From: Escherichia coli
GTDB taxonomy: Bacteria; Pseudomonadota; Gammaproteobacteria; Enterobacterales; Enterobacteriaceae
Direction: 5' to 3' (one strand)
Assembly: GCF_003018115.1 (NCBI RefSeq)
Contig: NZ_CP027457.1
Length of the DNA stretch: 64,000 bases
Under the pieces are notes generated by a model, which ran no database searches, was not told the origin of the DNA, and worked only from the letters and a program-made list of their open reading frames with translations. Each line of letters starts with the position of its first letter. The stretch's first letter is position 1. The translations under genes were made by a program, and so were the position numbers. This document shows, one piece after another, positions 44,485 through 52,948 of the stretch.

Positions 44485-45813
44485 TTAGCGGCCTTTTGCC
44501 AGATATTGCTCCATCTCTTCTTCCGGCACCATTCCACCTCCCGTCGCCCACACCAGATGAGTGGCATTATGCAGTTGTTCTGCGCTGAAACCGTGCATCT
44601 GTTGGTAACTTACTGATGCACACACGCGCTGAGGTCCGGCCATACCCGCCAGTGCCGAAGGTTCAAGACGAATACCTTCTTCCTGCGCCAGCCAGCCAAG
44701 CATGTCATACATGGTTTGATCGCTAAGGGTATAGAAGCCATCCAGCAGACGCTCCATTGCCCGCCCGACAAAGCCTGATGCGCGACCAACAGCAAGGCCA
44801 TCCGCTGCGGTAAGGTTGTCGATACCAATATCCTGAACAGAAATCTGATCGTGTAATCCTGTATGGACGCCTAACAACATACAAGGGGAGTGCGTTGGTT
44901 CGGCAAAAAAGCAGTGAACATGATCGCCAAACGCCAGTTTAAGCCCGAATGCGACGCCACCAGGACCACCGCCAACACCACACGGCAGATAGACAAACAG
45001 AGGGTTATCAGCATCGACGATACGGCCTTGCTGGGCAAATTGCGCTTTAAGACGCTGGCCAGCGACGGAATACCCAAGGAACAACGTGCGGGAATTTTCG
45101 TCATCAATAAAGAAACAGTTCGGGTCAGACTGCGCTGCTTTACGTCCTTCCTCGACGGCAACACCATAATCTTGCTCATATTCCACGACCGTAACGCCAT
45201 GGCTGCGCAGTTTCGCTTTTTTCCATGCCCGGGCATCAGCAGACATATGCACTGTCACCTTAAAGCCAATGCGGGCGCTCATAATGCCGATTGATAACCC
45301 CAGATTTCCGGTTGAGCCCACAGCAATGCTGTATTGGCTAAAGAACTGTTTAAACTCCGGAGAAAGCAGTTTGCTGTAGTCATCATCAAGCGTCAGCAAC
45401 CCCGCTTCCAGAGCCAGTTTTTCTGCGTGTGCCAGGACTTCATAAATCCCGCCGCGTGCTTTTATGGAGCCGGAAATGGGCAAATGGCTATCTTTTTTCA
45501 GTAACAGTTGCCCGCTGATTGGTTGTTGATATTCCTTTTCCAGCCGTTTTTGCATAGCCGGAATGGCAACCAGTTCTGATTCAATAATCCCCCCAGTGGC
45601 AGCAGTTTCAGGAAATGCTTTTGCCAGATAGGGTGCAAAACGGGATAAGCGCGCATGGGCGTCCTGAACATCCTGTTCGGTCAGGCCAACATAAGGTAAA
45701 CCTTCAGCCAATGAGGTCGTGCCAGGATTAAACCAGGTGGTTTCTTTAAGAGCAACCAGATCCTTTACCAACGGATACTGGGCGATGAGCGAGTTCATTT
45801 TAGCGTTTTCCAT
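44485..45813 (-). CDS. dsdA: D-serine ammonia-lyase (PLP-dependent)
   Basis: 442 aa; PLP-lysine motif SGSIKARGG. Confidence 0.95.
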
Positions 45814-45830
45814 AGTACGTCTCTTTGCGC

Positions 45831-46061
45831 TTAGATGATAAATGACAGCAGGAATGTGCCCGCCAGAGCGACGACTGAAGCGATAAATGTCGCTGTCGTA
45901 TAGTATTTAAATGTTTCATTGAGCGTAGCGCCGCAATATTGCTTCACCAGCCAGAAAAGCGAGTCCATAACGATCGTGCAGCCAATCGCGCCTGAACCGA
46001 TAGCAATCGCAATAATTTCCGGGCTGATGTCGGGATACAGCGGCAGCACAATGATCCATAT
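45831..46061 (-). pseudogene. dsdX: C-terminal fragment of the D-serine permease (GntP family); 5' part replaced by the csc insertion
   Basis: Frame encodes ..IWIIVLPLYPDISPEIIAIAIGSGAIGCTIVMDSLFWLVKQYCGATL..FII and opens at an in-frame stop; the ORF-track M at 46049 is an internal GTG. Confidence 0.8.
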
Positions 46062-46291
46062 TTATATTTTCTTCTCCAGGTTGGCGATGCCAGTTGGCAT
46101 GTTTTACTTACTTGCCTATATGGTTACTCGTTGGCGAGAACAGAGGCGGAATTTGGGACAATTGTCCGGCAATTATTGTTATTTTTTATTGTATTGCCGT
46201 GTCGGGTGATAGGGCGTTGAGAATTTCGTTGGATCTCGCCAGTGACGTCTGTTTCTGCTACAGTGCCCGTTTTACGGCAAACGGCTTGGGT

Positions 46292-47287
46292 ATGGCTTCA
46301 TTAAAGGATGTCGCACGCCTGGCGGGAGTGTCGATGATGACAGTCTCCCGGGTGATGCATAATGCAGAATCTGTGCGTCCTGCAACGCGTGACCGCGTAT
46401 TGCAGGCAATCCAGACCCTGAATTATGTTCCTGATCTTTCCGCCCGTAAGATGCGCGCTCAAGGACGTAAGCCGTCGACTCTCGCCGTGCTGGCGCAGGA
46501 CACGGCTACCACTCCTTTCTCTGTTGATATTCTGCTTGCCATTGAGCAAACCGCCAGCGAGTTCGGCTGGAATAGTTTTTTAATCAATATTTTTTCTGAA
46601 GATGACGCTGCCCGCGCGGCACGTCAGCTGCTTGCCCACCGTCCGGATGGCATTATCTATACTACAATGGGGCTGCGACATATCACGCTGCCTGAGTCTC
46701 TGTATGGTGAAAATATTGTATTGGCGAACTGTGTGGCGGATGACCCAGCGTTACCCAGTTATATCCCTGATGATTACACTGCACAATATGAATCAACACA
46801 GCATTTGCTCGCGGCGGGCTATCGTCAACCGTTATGCTTCTGGCTACCGGAAAGTGCGTTGGCAACAGGGTATCGTCGGCAGGGATTTGAGCAGGCCTGG
46901 CGTGATGCTGGACGAGATCTGGCTGAGGTGAAACAATTTCACATGGCAACAGGTGATGATCACTACACCGATCTCGCAAGTTTACTCAATGCCCACTTCA
47001 AATCGGGCAAACCAGATTTTGATGTTCTGATATGTGGTAACGATCGCGCAGCCTTTGTGGCTTATCAGGTTCTCCTGGCGAAGGGGGTACGTATCCCGCA
47101 GGATGTCGCCGTAATGGGCTTTGATAATCTGGTTGGCGTCGGGCATCTGTTTTTACCGCCGCTGACCACAATTCAGCTTCCACATGACATTATCGGGCGG
47201 GAAGCTGCATTGCATATTATTGAAGGTCGTGAAGGGGGAAGTGTGACGCGGATCCCTTGCCCGCTGTTGATCCGTTGTTCCACCTGA
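46292..47287 (+). CDS. cscR: LacI-family repressor of the csc sucrose regulon
   Basis: 331 aa from MASLKDVARLAGVSMMTVSRV (LacI HTH); the ORF-track start at 46094 is a spurious 66-codon extension. Confidence 0.88.
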   Translation: MASLKDVARLAGVSMMTVSRVMHNAESVRPATRDRVLQAIQTLNYVPDLSARKMRAQGRKPSTLAVLAQDTATTPFSVDILLAIEQTASEFGWNSFLINIFSEDDAARAARQLLAHRPDGIIYTTMGLRHITLPESLYGENIVLANCVADDPALPSYIPDDYTAQYESTQHLLAAGYRQPLCFWLPESALATGYRRQGFEQAWRDAGRDLAEVKQFHMATGDDHYTDLASLLNAHFKSGKPDFDVLICGNDRAAFVAYQVLLAKGVRIPQDVAVMGFDNLVGVGHLFLPPLTTIQLPHDIIGREAALHIIEGREGGSVTRIPCPLLIRCST

Positions 47288-47294
47288 TATTATG

Positions 47295-48728
47295 CTAACC
47301 CAGTTGCCAGAGTGCCCCATGTTGCACCACAGCCACTCCGTGGGAGGCATAAAGCGACAGTTCCCGTTCTTCTGGCTGCGGATAGATTCGACTACTCATC
47401 ACCGCTTCCCCGTCGTTAATAAATACTTCCACGGATGATGTATCGATAAATATCCTTAGGGCGAGCGTGTCACGCTGCGGGAGGGGAATACTACGGTAGC
47501 CGTCTAAATTCTCGTGTGGGTAATACCGCCACAAAACAAGTCGCTCAGATTGGTTATCAATATACAGCCGCATTCCAGTGCCGAGCTGTAATCCGTAATG
47601 TTCGGCATCACTGTTCTTCAGCGCCCACTGCAACTGAATCTCAACTGCTTGCGCGTTTTCCTGCAAAACATATTTATTGCTGATTGTGCGGGGAGAGATA
47701 GATTGATGCTGCTGGCGTAACGACTCAGCTTCGTGTACCGGGCGTTGTAGGAGTTTGCCATTGCTCTCTGATAGCTCGCGCGCCAGCGTCATGCAGCCTG
47801 CCCAGCCTTCACGTTTTGAGGGCATTGGCGATTCCCACATATCCATCCAGCCGATAACAATACGCCGACCATCCTTCGCTACAAAGCTTTGTGGTGCATA
47901 AAAGTCATGCCCGTTATCAAGTTCAGTAAAATGCCCGGATTGTGCAAAAAGTCGTCCTGGCGACCACATTCCGGGTATTACGCCACTTTGAAAGCGATTT
48001 CGGTAACTGTATCCCTCGGCATTCATTCCCTGCGGGGAAAACATCAGATAATGCTGATCGCCAAGGCTGAAAAAGTCCGGACATTCCCACATATAGCTTT
48101 CACCCGCATCAGCGTGGGCCAGTACGCGATCGAAAGTCCATTCACGTAATGAACTGCCGCGATAAAGCAGGATCTGCCCCGTGTTGCCTTGGTCTTTCGC
48201 CCCGACTACCATCCACCATGAGTCGGCTTCACGCCACACTTTAGGATCGCGGAAGTGCATGATTCCTTCTGGTGGAGTGAGGATCACACCCTGTTTCTCG
48301 AAATGAATACCATCCCGACTGGTAGCCAGACATTGTACTTCGCGAATTGCATCGTCATTACCTGCACCATCGAGCCAGACGTGTCCGGTGTAGATAAGTG
48401 AGAGGACACCATTGTCATCGACAGCACTACCTGAAAAACACCCATCTTTGTCATTATCGTCTCCTGGCGCTAGCGCAATAGGCTCATGCTGCCAGTGGAT
48501 CATATCGTCGCTGGTGGCATGTCCCCAGTGCATTGGCCCCCAGTGTTCGCTCATTGGGTGATGCTGATAAAACGCGTGATAACGATCGTTAAACCAGATC
48601 AGGCCGTTTGGATCGTTCATCCACCCGGCAGGAGGCGCGAGGTGAAAATGGGGATAGAAAGTGTTACCCCGGTGCTCATGAAGTTTTGCTAGTGCGTTTT
48701 GCGCCGCATGCAATCGAGATTGCGTCAT
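47295..48728 (-). CDS. cscA: sucrose-6-phosphate hydrolase / invertase (GH32)
   Basis: GH32 motifs NDPNG and RDP; start taken at MTQSRL (AGGA 9 nt upstream) rather than the ATG at 48737. Confidence 0.9.
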   Translation of the reverse strand: MTQSRLHAAQNALAKLHEHRGNTFYPHFHLAPPAGWMNDPNGLIWFNDRYHAFYQHHPMSEHWGPMHWGHATSDDMIHWQHEPIALAPGDDNDKDGCFSGSAVDDNGVLSLIYTGHVWLDGAGNDDAIREVQCLATSRDGIHFEKQGVILTPPEGIMHFRDPKVWREADSWWMVVGAKDQGNTGQILLYRGSSLREWTFDRVLAHADAGESYMWECPDFFSLGDQHYLMFSPQGMNAEGYSYRNRFQSGVIPGMWSPGRLFAQSGHFTELDNGHDFYAPQSFVAKDGRRIVIGWMDMWESPMPSKREGWAGCMTLARELSESNGKLLQRPVHEAESLRQQHQSISPRTISNKYVLQENAQAVEIQLQWALKNSDAEHYGLQLGTGMRLYIDNQSERLVLWRYYPHENLDGYRSIPLPQRDTLALRIFIDTSSVEVFINDGEAVMSSRIYPQPEERELSLYASHGVAVVQHGALWQLG

Positions 48729-48762
48729 TTTAATCATCCTGGTTAAGCAAATTTGGTGAATT

Positions 48763-48774
48763 GTTAACGTTAAC
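48763..48774. promoter_or_regulatory. candidate CscR operator (12-bp palindrome), copy 1
   Basis: gttaacgttaac in the cscA-cscK divergent intergenic region. Confidence 0.4.
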
Positions 48775-48826
48775 TTTTATAAAAATAAAGTCCCTTACTT
48801 TCATAAATGCGATGAATATCACAAAT

Positions 48827-48838
48827 GTTAACGTTAAC
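48827..48838. promoter_or_regulatory. candidate CscR operator (12-bp palindrome), copy 2
   Basis: Identical gttaacgttaac 64 bp from copy 1. Confidence 0.4.
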
Positions 48839-48943
48839 TATGACATTTTGTGATCGAATATGCATGTTTTAGTAAATCCATGACGATTTTGCGAAAAAGA
48901 GGTTTATCACTATGCGTAAGTCAGATGAATTTAAGGGAAAAAA

Positions 48944-49858
48944 ATGTCAGCCAAAGTATGGGTTTTAGGGGATGCGGTAGTAGATCTCTTGCCAGAATCA
49001 GACGGGCGCCTACTGCCTTGTCCTGGCGGCGCGCCAGCTAACGTTGCGGTGGGAATCGCCAGATTAGGCGGAATAAGTGGGTTTATAGGTCGGGTCGGTG
49101 ATGATCCTTTTGGTGCGTTAATGCAAAGAACTCTGCTAACTGAGGGAGTCGATATCACGTATCTGAAGCAAGATGAATGGCACCGGACATCCACGGTGCT
49201 TGTCGATCTGAACGATCAAGGGGAACGTTCATTTACGTTTATGGTTCGCCCCAGTGCCGATCTTTTTTTAGAGACGACAGACTTGCCCTGCTGGCGACAT
49301 GGCGAATGGTTACATCTCTGTTCAATTGCGTTGTCTGCCGAGCCTTCGCGTACCAGCGCATTTACTGCGATGACGGCGATCCGGCATGCCGGAGGTTTTG
49401 TCAGCTTCGATCCCAATATTCGTGAAGATCTATGGCAAGACGAGCATTTGCTCCGCTTGTGTTTGCGGCAGGCGCTACAACTGGCGGATGTCGTCAAACT
49501 CTCGGAAGAAGAATGGCGACTAATCAGTGGAAAAACACAGAACGATCGGGATATATGCGCCCTGGCAAAAGAGTATGAGATCGCCATGCTGTTGGTGACT
49601 AAAGGTGCAGAAGGGGTGGTGGTCTGTTATCGAGGACAAGTTCACCATTTTGCTGGAATGTCTGTGAATTGTGTCGATAGCACGGGGGCGGGAGATGCGT
49701 TCGTTGCCGGGTTACTCACAGGTCTGTCCTCTACGGGATTATCTACAGATGAGAGAGAAATGCGACGAATTATCGATCTCGCTCAACGTTGCGGAGCGCT
49801 TGCAGTAACGGCGAAAGGGGCAATGACAGCGCTGCCATGTCGACAAGAACTGGAATAG
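48944..49858 (+). CDS. cscK: fructokinase (PfkB/ribokinase family)
   Basis: 304 aa; PfkB signature GAGDAF near the C-terminus. Confidence 0.9.
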   Translation: MSAKVWVLGDAVVDLLPESDGRLLPCPGGAPANVAVGIARLGGISGFIGRVGDDPFGALMQRTLLTEGVDITYLKQDEWHRTSTVLVDLNDQGERSFTFMVRPSADLFLETTDLPCWRHGEWLHLCSIALSAEPSRTSAFTAMTAIRHAGGFVSFDPNIREDLWQDEHLLRLCLRQALQLADVVKLSEEEWRLISGKTQNDRDICALAKEYEIAMLLVTKGAEGVVVCYRGQVHHFAGMSVNCVDSTGAGDAFVAGLLTGLSSTGLSTDEREMRRIIDLAQRCGALAVTAKGAMTALPCRQELE

Positions 49859-49929
49859 TGAGAAGTAAACGGCGAAGTCGCTCTTATCTCTAAATAGGAC
49901 GTGAATTTTTTAACGACAGGCAGGTAATT

Positions 49930-51177
49930 ATGGCACTGAATATCCCATTCAGAAATGCGTACTATCGTTTTGCATCCAGTTACTCATTTCTCTTTTTTAT
50001 TTCCTGGTCGCTGTGGTGGTCGTTATACGCTATTTGGCTGAAAGGACATCTAGGGTTGACAGGGACGGAATTAGGTACACTTTATTCGGTCAACCAGTTT
50101 ACCAGCATTCTATTTATGATGTTCTACGGCATCGTTCAGGATAAACTCGGTCTGAAGAAACCACTCATCTGGTGTATGAGTTTCATCCTGGTCTTGACCG
50201 GACCGTTTATGATTTACGTTTATGAACCGTTACTGCAAAGCAATTTTTCTGTAGGTCTAATTCTGGGGGCGCTCTTTTTTGGCTTGGGGTATCTGGCGGG
50301 ATGCGGTTTGCTTGACAGCTTCACCGAAAAAATGGCGCGAAATTTTCATTTCGAATATGGAACAGCGCGCGCCTGGGGATCTTTTGGCTATGCTATTGGC
50401 GCGTTCTTTGCCGGCATATTTTTTAGTATCAATCCCCATATCAACTTCTGGTTGGTCTCGCTATTTGGCGCTGTATTTATGATGATCAACATGCGTTTTA
50501 AAGATAAGGATCACCAGTGCGTAGCGGCGGATGCGGGAGGGGTAAAAAAAGAGGATTTTATCGCAGTTTTCAAGGATCGAAACTTCTGGGTTTTCGTCAT
50601 ATTTATTGTGGGGACGTGGTCTTTCTATAACATTTTTGATCAACAACTTTTTCCTGTCTTTTATGCAGGTTTATTCGAATCACACGATGTAGGAACGCGC
50701 CTGTATGGTTATCTCAACTCATTCCAGGTGGTACTCGAAGCAGTGTGCATGGCGATTATTCCTTTCTTTGTGAATCGGGTAGGGCCAAAAAATGCATTAC
50801 TTATCGGTGTTGTGATTATGGCGTTGCGTATCCTTTCCTGCGCGCTGTTCGTTAACCCCTGGATTATTTCATTAGTGAAGCTGTTACATGCCATTGAGGT
50901 TCCACTTTGTGTCATATCCGTCTTCAAATACAGCGTGGCAAACTTTGATAAGCGCCTGTCGTCGACGATCTTTCTGATTGGTTTTCAAATTGCCAGTTCG
51001 CTTGGGATTGTGCTGCTTTCAACGCCGACTGGGATACTCTTTGACCACGCAGGCTACCAGACAGTTTTCTTCGCAATTTCGGGTATTGTCTGCCTGATGT
51101 TGCTATTTGGCATTTTCTTCCTGAGTAAAAAACGCGAGCAAATAGTTATGGAAACGCCTGTACCTTCAGCAATATAG
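49930..51177 (+). CDS. cscB: sucrose:H+ symporter (MFS, oligosaccharide:H+ symporter family)
   Basis: 415 aa, 12-TM LacY-like protein. Confidence 0.92.
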   Translation: MALNIPFRNAYYRFASSYSFLFFISWSLWWSLYAIWLKGHLGLTGTELGTLYSVNQFTSILFMMFYGIVQDKLGLKKPLIWCMSFILVLTGPFMIYVYEPLLQSNFSVGLILGALFFGLGYLAGCGLLDSFTEKMARNFHFEYGTARAWGSFGYAIGAFFAGIFFSINPHINFWLVSLFGAVFMMINMRFKDKDHQCVAADAGGVKKEDFIAVFKDRNFWVFVIFIVGTWSFYNIFDQQLFPVFYAGLFESHDVGTRLYGYLNSFQVVLEAVCMAIIPFFVNRVGPKNALLIGVVIMALRILSCALFVNPWIISLVKLLHAIEVPLCVISVFKYSVANFDKRLSSTIFLIGFQIASSLGIVLLSTPTGILFDHAGYQTVFFAISGIVCLMLLFGIFFLSKKREQIVMETPVPSAI

Positions 51178-51296
51178 ACGTAAACTTTTTCCGGTTGTTG
51201 TCGATATCTCCATATCCCTCAACCGGAAAATAATAATAGTAAAATGCTTAGCCCTGGTGACTGCTCCCCGCCCTGTCGGGCGAGGCTTCCCACTTC

Positions 51297-52466
51297 TTAA
51301 GCTGCAACCGTCTGTGTGACGGATTTACGCTGGCCTCCATGGGCAGAAACGACGAGTCCCGCCGCTTGTAATTCCAGTATGCCCTTGCGTTTGATGTTGA
51401 GCGCCGCGTTGATATCGCGGTCATGTTCAACTCCACACTCTGGACACTGCCAGATGCGCTTATGTAATGGCATCTCCGACATTTTGTGACCGCAGCAGTG
51501 GCAGATTTTCGAACTGGCGAACCATTGATCCAGTTTCACCAGATGCACACCTTTCTCTGTTGCTTTGTATTCCAGTTTTGTGATGAATCCAGACCATCCA
51601 GCATCGCCTATCGCACGAGCCAGATGGTGATTTTTCATCATATTTGCCGTTTTCAATGTCTCGACAATTACCGCTTGGTTTTCGTCAACAATTGCGCGAG
51701 ATAACTTGTGCTGGAAATCGGCACGGGCACTGGCTACCCGTTCGTGAACGGCTGCAAGTTGTATTCTGGCTTTGCGCCTGTTTGCGCTCCCTTTTTTCTT
51801 ACGGGACAGTGCTTTCTGCTTCCGGCGAAGGTTGCGACTTGCATTGATTAGGTGGCGGGGACTGGCAATTTTATTGCCGTCCGATTTGATGACAAAATGC
51901 GCCAGCCCCATATCCAGCCCTGTCACATTTGATATCAGTGCGGGCTTTGCCGGCGCTTCCATCCCGTCGTCACAGAGTAACGACGCGTAGTATTTCCCGG
52001 TTGCGCTGCGGCTCAACGTGATACTTTTCAGCATTCCCGTAATTTCACGATGTAAACGCGCTTCAATCGGCAAGATTTTCGGTATTTTTATCGCACCATC
52101 AAGGACTTTTATGCCAACACAATGATAGCTCGATTGTCTGCCGTGTTTACTTTTAAAGGTAGGTTTACCTGCTTTCAGTTTCGGATTGAAAAAGTTAGAA
52201 AAAGCCACGTCGAGGTTAATTACCGCCTGCTGCAACGCAATAGAATCATATTCTTTAAGCCATCCATACCGGCGGGATTTCTTCGCCACTGCAAGCAGTG
52301 GTTTGAGGTCTTTACGCGGGTTTAAATTTACGCGGTGCCGCTGGTAAGAATGTTTCTTGATATGCAGAGCTTTGTTGTACGCAAAACGCACTGCACCGAA
52401 CTGGGCGTTGATAAATTCAGCCTGTTCTGGTGTCGGGTAGATGCGTACTTTTGTTGCTCTTAACAT
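51297..52466 (-). CDS. tnpB: TnpB (OrfB) RuvC-like RNA-guided endonuclease of the IS200/IS605 family
   Basis: 389 aa; N-terminal HTH-like region, RuvC-I (GLDMGL), RuvC-II (VIVETLK), zinc ribbon CHCCGH...CPECG, RuvC-III (HDRDINAALNI). Confidence 0.9.
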   Translation of the reverse strand: MLRATKVRIYPTPEQAEFINAQFGAVRFAYNKALHIKKHSYQRHRVNLNPRKDLKPLLAVAKKSRRYGWLKEYDSIALQQAVINLDVAFSNFFNPKLKAGKPTFKSKHGRQSSYHCVGIKVLDGAIKIPKILPIEARLHREITGMLKSITLSRSATGKYYASLLCDDGMEAPAKPALISNVTGLDMGLAHFVIKSDGNKIASPRHLINASRNLRRKQKALSRKKKGSANRRKARIQLAAVHERVASARADFQHKLSRAIVDENQAVIVETLKTANMMKNHHLARAIGDAGWSGFITKLEYKATEKGVHLVKLDQWFASSKICHCCGHKMSEMPLHKRIWQCPECGVEHDRDINAALNIKRKGILELQAAGLVVSAHGGQRKSVTQTVAA

Positions 52467-52522
52467 AATCAGCGCTCATTGATATAATTCTTTTATTTTA
52501 ACGCTTTAGGTGAATATATCAA

Positions 52523-52948
52523 TTGAGTAATCATGATGATTTACTGGCGGGATTTCTCCGCAAACGACACAGTGTCAGTAAGCTGGTTGTGCACCTTATT
52601 TTTACGACAAAGTATCGACGCAAACTATTCGACAGTCAGATGATCGCTCAGTTGCGTGAGGCTTTTGGCTCCGCTGCGGCAAAGCTTGAATGCGAAATTA
52701 TTGAGATGGACGGGGAGCCAGACCATGTACACCTGCTGGTTGCCTACCCGCCAAAACTGGCGGTCAGTGTGATGGTCAATAATTTAAAATCGGTATCATC
52801 ACGTTTGCTACGCCAGCAGAACGCGCATTTACGTATGCAGAGTAAAACGGGGCTTTTGTGGTCGAGATCGTACTTTGTCTGTAGCACCGGAGGGGCAACG
52901 ATTGAAACGCTCAGAGCCTACGTTCAGAGTCAGTCAACACCTGATTGA
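52523..52948 (+). CDS. tnpA: IS200-type Y1 (HuH) transposase TnpA
   Basis: 141 aa; HuH motif HVHLLV, conserved TTKYRR, catalytic Tyr region (SRSYFV). Confidence 0.88.
   Translation: MSNHDDLLAGFLRKRHSVSKLVVHLIFTTKYRRKLFDSQMIAQLREAFGSAAAKLECEIIEMDGEPDHVHLLVAYPPKLAVSVMVNNLKSVSSRLLRQQNAHLRMQSKTGLLWSRSYFVCSTGGATIETLRAYVQSQSTPD

Follow-up and report, generated by a model that had tools for sequence, protein, structure and literature searches.

The two identical 12-bp palindromes GTTAACGTTAAC located between the divergently oriented sucrose genes cscA and cscK are very probably the operators through which CscR, the LacI-family repressor encoded in the same locus, acts on the bidirectional cscA/cscKB control region; this assignment is part of the explanation that best accounts for the data as a whole. 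The palindromes lie within a window of 64,000 nucleotides, the whole stretch of Escherichia coli DNA that was analysed (contig NZ_CP027457.1). The finding is correct, but it is ordinary and of little value as a discovery, because the palindrome pair had been reported for E. coli by 2002. Publications from that year onward cover the sites, the repressor, the dependence on CRP and an operator mutation that relieves repression, and operator conservation was revisited in 2024. Industrial E. coli strains are routinely enabled to use sucrose by engineering of the csc promoter region and cscR, and knowledge of which operator is paired with which promoter would aid sucrose-inducible expression systems and biosensors.

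The csc locus in the window consists of cscR, cscA, cscK and cscB and adjoins dsdA and argW. The 5.5 kb around the palindromes showed 100% identity to chromosomes of E. coli O169:H41. The cscR gene (46292-47287, + strand), assigned from the RefSeq annotation of the identical locus, encodes a LacI-family repressor of 331 aa and is convergent with cscA (47295-48728, - strand), which encodes a GH32 sucrose hydrolase. Divergently from cscA, the cscK-cscB operon (48944-51177, + strand) contains cscK (48944-49858, +), encoding a fructokinase of the PfkB kinase type, and cscB (49930-51177, +), encoding a LacY-family sucrose permease; cscA, cscK and cscB were assigned from the RefSeq annotation and Pfam. 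Mechanical extension of open reading frames gave a cscR frame from TTG 46094 (397 aa) versus the gene start at 46292 (331 aa), and a cscA frame from ATG 48737 versus the gene start at 48728. A stop codon comes after the upstream ATG (48737) in C. amalonaticus. The initial annotation had placed the palindromes in an intergenic region beginning at 48738; the intergenic location stands, while the left border does not, since the annotated cscA start is ATG 48728 and the region therefore spans 48729-48943 (215 bp). Of 5,426 complete E. coli genomes, 2,662 contain this control region (95-100% identity), and no feature is annotated in it.

An intact dsdA (44485-45813, - strand; RefSeq annotation and Pfam) and a C-terminal piece of dsdX of 72 codons (45831-46049, - strand) lie on the cscR side, the dsdX remnant directly beside cscR. 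The junction of the dsdX remnant, dsdA and cscR is the known csc/dsd replacement hot spot. Deletions at the csc/dsd junction in EHEC bring a silent dsdA under the control of the cscA promoter (PMC7486766). The region downstream of cscB contains ISEc46, an IS200/IS605-family element (51297-52948, mixed strands) with tnpB (51297-52466, - strand) and tnpA (52523-52948, + strand), and, further downstream, an integrase fragment and the tRNA-Arg(CCU) gene argW (53462-53536, - strand). ISEc46, the integrase fragment and argW fit the location of the csc genes at a tRNA-linked integration hot spot.

The palindrome GTTAACGTTAAC occurs exactly at 48763-48774 (O1, the putative promoter-proximal operator of cscA) and 48827-48838 (O2, the putative distal operator), as the initial annotation had described, and nowhere else in the 64 kb. 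It is its own reverse complement, being composed of two GTTAAC half-sites with a central CG, and the repeat common to both copies reaches 17 nt, AA(T/A)TGTTAACGTTAACT. The copies are 64 bp apart from start to start and are separated by 52 bp. No further similar site with two or fewer mismatches was found near the csc genes, the next-best matches (two mismatches) being far off in the window. Within 45800-51300, the sole other match with up to three mismatches is at 46818, inside the cscR coding region (3 mismatches); the region upstream of cscR (46050-46291) has none with up to three mismatches, so there is no evidence for CscR autoregulation via GTTAACGTTAAC. As 21 perfect 12-bp palindromes were observed in the window against 15.6 expected, a single one would mean nothing; only GTTAACGTTAAC is present twice. 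Its expected count is ~0.004 per 64 kb and 2e-5 in the intergenic region, calculated from the region's own base composition. The fraction of shuffled intergenic regions (n=200,000) containing any 12-bp palindrome twice was 1.3e-4, which together with the doubling of GTTAACGTTAAC excludes a chance origin. A reading of the repeats as an RNA element was rejected, as an Rfam scan of 45800-51300 generated zero RNA family matches. Another inverted repeat (48791-48804 and 48925-48938) was regarded as a chance occurrence and is not kept in divergent E. coli or Escherichia sp. sequences.

Both palindromes have the features of operators recognized by LacI/GalR regulators. The typical LacI-family site is an even palindrome with a central CG located 30-140 bp upstream of start codons (PMC4052901), and both copies have this form. 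The centre of O1 (48768.5) is 40.5 bp upstream of the cscA ATG, and that of O2 (48832.5) is 104.5 bp away from the start codon of cscA and 111.5 bp away from that of cscK. The cognate regulator gene is in the locus and co-occurs with the sites across orthologous loci (see below). The cscR product contains the LacI helix-turn-helix (PF00356) and sugar-binding (PF00532) domains in Pfam, and its closest relative of known structure is 6NDI (E = 1.8e-114). A dimer of the LacI/GalR type is the most likely form of CscR.

An inverted repeat of 12 bp, present twice in the cscA-cscK interval, was proposed as the CscR operator by Jahreis et al. (2002, J Bacteriol 184:5307) for the csc regulon of E. coli EC3132 and W, as summarized in PMC11251922 and PMC3938415. 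In that study, a point mutation in one copy derepressed the regulon, with raised cscA expression (PMC11251922). The repeats are further described as flanking the -35 and -10 elements of the cscA promoter, with the downstream repeat over the transcription start and a Crp site adjoining the -35 element (PMC11251922). Separate cscA and cscKB operator sites are named in PMC3938415, which also reports a recurrent operator mutation, 'cscKBOP', that enables cells to grow when sucrose is low. The bidirectional csc promoter, whose activity depends on cAMP, is said there to contain two cAMP-Crp sites. O2 appears to be the 'cscKB operator' of this E. coli W literature. In EHEC, deletion of cscR increased expression of cscA 58-fold, cscK 156-fold and cscB 28-fold, and reporter fusions indicated that CscR acts on the cscA promoter (PMC7486766). 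The coordinated repression proposed in the initial annotation agrees with this 28- to 156-fold increase of all three transcripts. The control region of EDL933, the parent of the EHEC cscR deletion strain, carries both of the same palindromes. Adaptive evolution of E. coli W on sucrose inactivated cscR repeatedly; that report concerns loss of function only and gives no operator details (PMC6599523). The locus, genes, two-repeat layout and Crp site beside the -35 element seen here show no substantive difference from the published E. coli csc operators.

Two CRP sites accompany the palindromes. CRPb (TGCGATGAATATCACA, 48808-48823, centre 48815.5) has one mismatch to TGTGAN6TCACA, and the CRP-like site CRPa (TGTGATCGAATATGCA, 48849-48864, centre 48856.5) has a perfect left half and a weak right half, so that O2 lies between the two. 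The TTTGTGATC portion of CRPa is invariant in E. coli, C. amalonaticus, Tatumella and Pluralibacter. The centre-to-centre distances are 64 bp (6.1 turns) for O1-O2, 47 bp for O1-CRPb, 17 bp for CRPb-O2, 24 bp for O2-CRPa and 41 bp for CRPb-CRPa.

In a promoter and terminator scan of 48600-49050, nothing passed and no strong sigma-70 consensus match was obtained. For cscA this fits an activator-dependent promoter; the start sites used here were consequently derived from CRP geometry only and are uncertain. The cscA core promoter was placed at 48775-48807 (- strand) from CRP geometry and a conserved CTTT...AAA block, with TATTTT (48787 to 48782) and TATAAA (48781 to 48776) as candidate -10 hexamers on the - strand. 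A position of CRPb at -41.5 would put the cscA start near 48774, in agreement with the published description. With this start, the -10 element would be TATTTT, O1 would cover about +1 to +12, thereby overlapping the -10/start region, and the centre of O2 would fall near -58. For the cscKB promoter, the best candidate -10 region is the GGTTTATCA block (48900-48909, + strand), which does not vary among six E. coli-type loci whose protein identity falls to 65-73% and which extend as far as Pluralibacter; the block may instead be part of a leader or another binding site. The candidate hexamer, TATCAC (48905-48910, + strand), is poor and lacks the terminal T; if this were the cscKB -10 element, CRPa would lie near -61.5 and O2 near -85. 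The candidates nearer to O2, TATGAC (48839) and TAGTAA (48870), were rejected on the basis of non-canonical CRP distances and lack of conservation. Conservation is higher in the cscK-proximal part of the intergenic region (48866-48943) than in the inter-operator stretch that holds the cscA promoter. CCATGACGATTTTGCGAAAAAGAGGTTTATCACTATGCGTAA is nearly invariant in the sampled E. coli and Escherichia sequences, which included a lineage with csc proteins only 92-96% identical, and shows one A/G polymorphism (O26, FCI55).

A scan with CscA, restricted to one genome per species, yielded 80 Enterobacterales loci encoding a CscA relative at 53-97% protein identity. A pair, defined as two palindrome copies with 0-1 mismatch each upstream of the invertase operon, was present in 64 of these, with a spacing of 64 bp in 43 loci, 63 bp in 11, 62 bp in 3 and 68-69 bp in 7 loci of Proteus with altered half-sites. 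The pair accompanies CscR-like genes in about 60 loci of many genera. All CscR-like proteins encoded beside the sites share the recognition helix VS(M/L)MTVSR at 48-100% overall identity. Neither a CscR homologue nor the sites are present in the fetched region of four loci (Lonsdalea and one S. marcescens), and the CscR-containing loci without sites are those cut off upstream; another four (L006, L011, L017 and L072) have the sites though the fetched stretch contains no CscR homologue. Among eight sampled sequences of E. coli and Escherichia, both 12-mers were invariant and the intervening 52 bp diverged; the 12-mers are likewise kept amid diverging flanking DNA across genera whose proteins are only 55-70% identical. 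Conservation of the 12-mers amid diverging flanks, together with CscR, is a strong phylogenetic footprint tying the palindromes to CscR. The assignment to the adjacent repressor in the initial annotation is thus supported by this co-occurrence as well as by the literature and the helix-turn-helix domain of CscR.

The loci are of two types. The E. coli-type arrangement, with cscK or cscB divergent from cscA, was found in E. coli, C. amalonaticus, Tatumella, Pluralibacter and Rosenbergiella. The single-operon type, in which a gene for a LacY-family transporter (~40% identical to CscB) is followed by that for a GH32 invertase, was found in Yersinia, Rahnella, Serratia, Erwinia, Klebsiella, Kosakonia, Cedecea and others. 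In 55 non-redundant modules the order is CRPa, 24 bp, O_distal, 17 bp, CRPb, 45-47 bp and O_proximal. Their consensus reads TGTGATTTCGATCACA, 8 nt, ATGTTAACGTTAACAT, T and TGTGATTAACATCACA in the distal half, and a variable stretch with a conserved CTTT followed by AAA-GTTAACGTTAAC-AAT in the proximal half. The distal operator across genera is thus a 16-bp palindrome, ATGTTAACGTTAACAT; CRPb has the consensus TGTGATTAACATCACA at a fixed distance from it, and CRPa in other genera is the full TGTGATTTCGATCACA. The consensus can be read as a distal operator with a perfect-consensus CRP site on either side, followed by the promoter and the proximal operator. Variation in length is wholly between CRPb and O_proximal, the CRPa-O_distal and O_distal-CRPb distances being fixed. 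The module across genera and its fixed geometry extend the five-species comparison of PMC11251922.

There are strong grounds to conclude that CscR binds both palindromes and that, bound to O1, it blocks RNA polymerase at the cscA start. In the mechanism proposed here, each helix-turn-helix of the CscR dimer would read one GTTAAC half-site, with the hinge inserting at the central CG. In the absence of inducer, CscR would occupy O1 and O2, and at O1, over the -10/start region of the CRP-dependent cscA promoter, it would exclude RNA polymerase directly. O2, at about -58 for cscA and about -85 for the presumed cscKB start, would interfere with CRP-dependent activation; this anti-activation role is the most likely one for O2, and we infer it with less confidence than the role of O1. 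The alpha C-terminal domain of RNA polymerase docks immediately upstream of CRP at class II promoters, and CscR at O2 would fill the docking DNA upstream of CRPb. As O2 would lie on this docking DNA and abuts both CRP sites, both divergent promoters would be lowered, O2 being shared in E. coli with the cscKB promoter. Sucrose or a sugar derived from it would release CscR, after which cAMP-CRP would activate both promoters. The cscKB side is the weakest step of the mechanism, as about -85 is an unusual position for a repressor.

The single-operon loci bear on the role of O2. In Yersinia, Serratia, Rahnella and Erwinia there is no divergent gene or promoter, and the module is preceded by a gene in the same orientation that is unrelated to its counterparts in the other genera, yet both operators and both CRP sites are kept. 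Retention of both operators in loci with one promoter indicates that O2 belongs to the invertase promoter's own control. A broader account, which we put forward tentatively as a possibility, is that the operators form the ends of an ancient, rigid, CscR-linked module whose distal operator anti-activates, and that E. coli co-opted O2 and CRPa for cscKB. The distal operator would then neither occlude nor loop in the manner of LacI; CscR would instead sit at about -58 between two CRP dimers.

The same loci make it doubtful that each promoter has an operator of its own, with O1 acting only on cscA and O2 only on cscKB, each blocking independently, since the single-promoter loci retain both operators at the same spacing. 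Relative to cscK, moreover, O2 is upstream of CRPa and ~70 bp from the conserved candidate -10 block, a position that does not allow simple occlusion of RNA polymerase there. The operator mutation summarized in PMC11251922 raised cscA expression, and both repeats flank the cscA promoter in that description, which also argues against one operator per promoter.

Looping was likewise considered, in which a CscR dimer of dimers on O1 and O2 would loop out the 64-bp segment with the promoter and CRPb and so repress both promoters. The initial annotation had pointed to a spacing of about six helical turns, and the 6.1 turns measured here bear this out, placing the operator centres on nearly the same helix face. 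The spacing is 62-64 bp in 57 of the 64 paired loci, and the layout of an operator, a CRP site and an operator over the start resembles a compressed lac O3-CAP-O1. Looping by CscR is thus geometrically possible. However, CscR ends at residue 331 with the sugar-binding domain extending to 329, and its alignment to LacI covers LacI residues 5-313 only; nothing in CscR corresponds to the C-terminal helix through which LacI forms tetramers and bridges two operators, although CscR may self-associate in some other way. A loop of 64 bp would be very tight for a protein without a flexible bridge. The insertions and deletions are all between CRPb and O_proximal, the other distances being fixed, so the O1-O2 spacing is explained by a CRP site and a core promoter filling the gap, and the 68-69 bp of Proteus are half a turn out of phase. 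Looping, though geometrically sound, seems unlikely, and direct blocking at O1 with anti-activation from O2 is preferred.

That the repeats do not bind CscR at all, being chance occurrences, what is left of a tandem duplication of 64 bp, or targets of another factor, is highly improbable: single 12-bp palindromes are common (21 in the window), and the literature searched contained no CscR EMSA, footprint or ChIP data, the operators still being termed 'putative', but the same palindrome occurs twice at a probability of about 1e-4, the 12-mers are invariant amid diverging flanks across genera and co-occur with CscR-like genes, and published genetic evidence supports their role. An origin by tandem duplication was rejected, since beyond the 17-nt core the two 64-bp units agree at 13 of 47 positions, as chance alone would give.

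The csc control region was compared with known systems. The lac O3-CAP-O1 region and csc are alike in having an auxiliary operator upstream of a CRP site, a main operator over the start and in-phase spacing. They differ in that the lac sites are 92 bp apart versus 64 bp in csc, that LacI forms a tetramer via its C-terminal helix whereas CscR lacks this helix, and that CRP in csc would act from about -41.5 (class II), compared with -61.5 in lac. CytR/CRP anti-activation promoters such as deoP2 share with csc a LacI-family repressor site between two CRP sites. CytR-type promoters have a CRP-CRP spacing of about 52-53 bp and weak CytR sites that depend on CRP. In csc, by contrast, the CRP centres are 41 bp apart, the repressor site is a perfect, strong palindrome, and a second operator lies over the start. 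The ScrR operators flanking the scrY promoter in pUR400 and Klebsiella (Jahreis and Lengeler 1993, as cited in PMC11251922) are 14-bp repeats of different sequence. ScrR belongs to a different orthologous group of repressors from CscR, and Scr is a PTS-type regulon with no divergent second promoter.

The module and a CscR-like repressor are widespread in Enterobacterales (L007-L081; e.g. L022, 3641-3716; L047, 3632-3707; L074, 3635-3710) and also occur in Pantoea, upstream of a transporter/GH32 operon. As csc has been described as rare outside E. coli (PMC11251922), these loci look like a related but distinct non-PTS sucrose locus. In Providencia and Morganella (L009, L010, L012, L014 and L015), the sites are the variants GTTAATGTTAAC and GTTAACATTAAC, with a central TG/CA instead of CG, and the neighbouring CscR-like proteins are only 48-49% identical with the same recognition helix, VSMMTVSR. 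In the Proteus loci (L045, L048-L051, L055 and L058), the pair consists of GATAACGTTAAC and GTTATCGTTAAC at a spacing of 68-69 bp, and the interval lacks a recognisable CRP site, a geometry unlike that of all other genera. In E. coli O84:H7 strain Trh52 (L087, NZ_CP047600.1, 2468-2618), an exact 64-bp deletion between direct repeats, corresponding to 48762-48825 of the window, has left a single palindrome and removed the cscA core promoter and CRPb, so that the intergenic region is 151 bp versus 215 bp. A deletion of this type is rare, as only 5 of the 2,662 genomes with the control region matched it at < 80% coverage.
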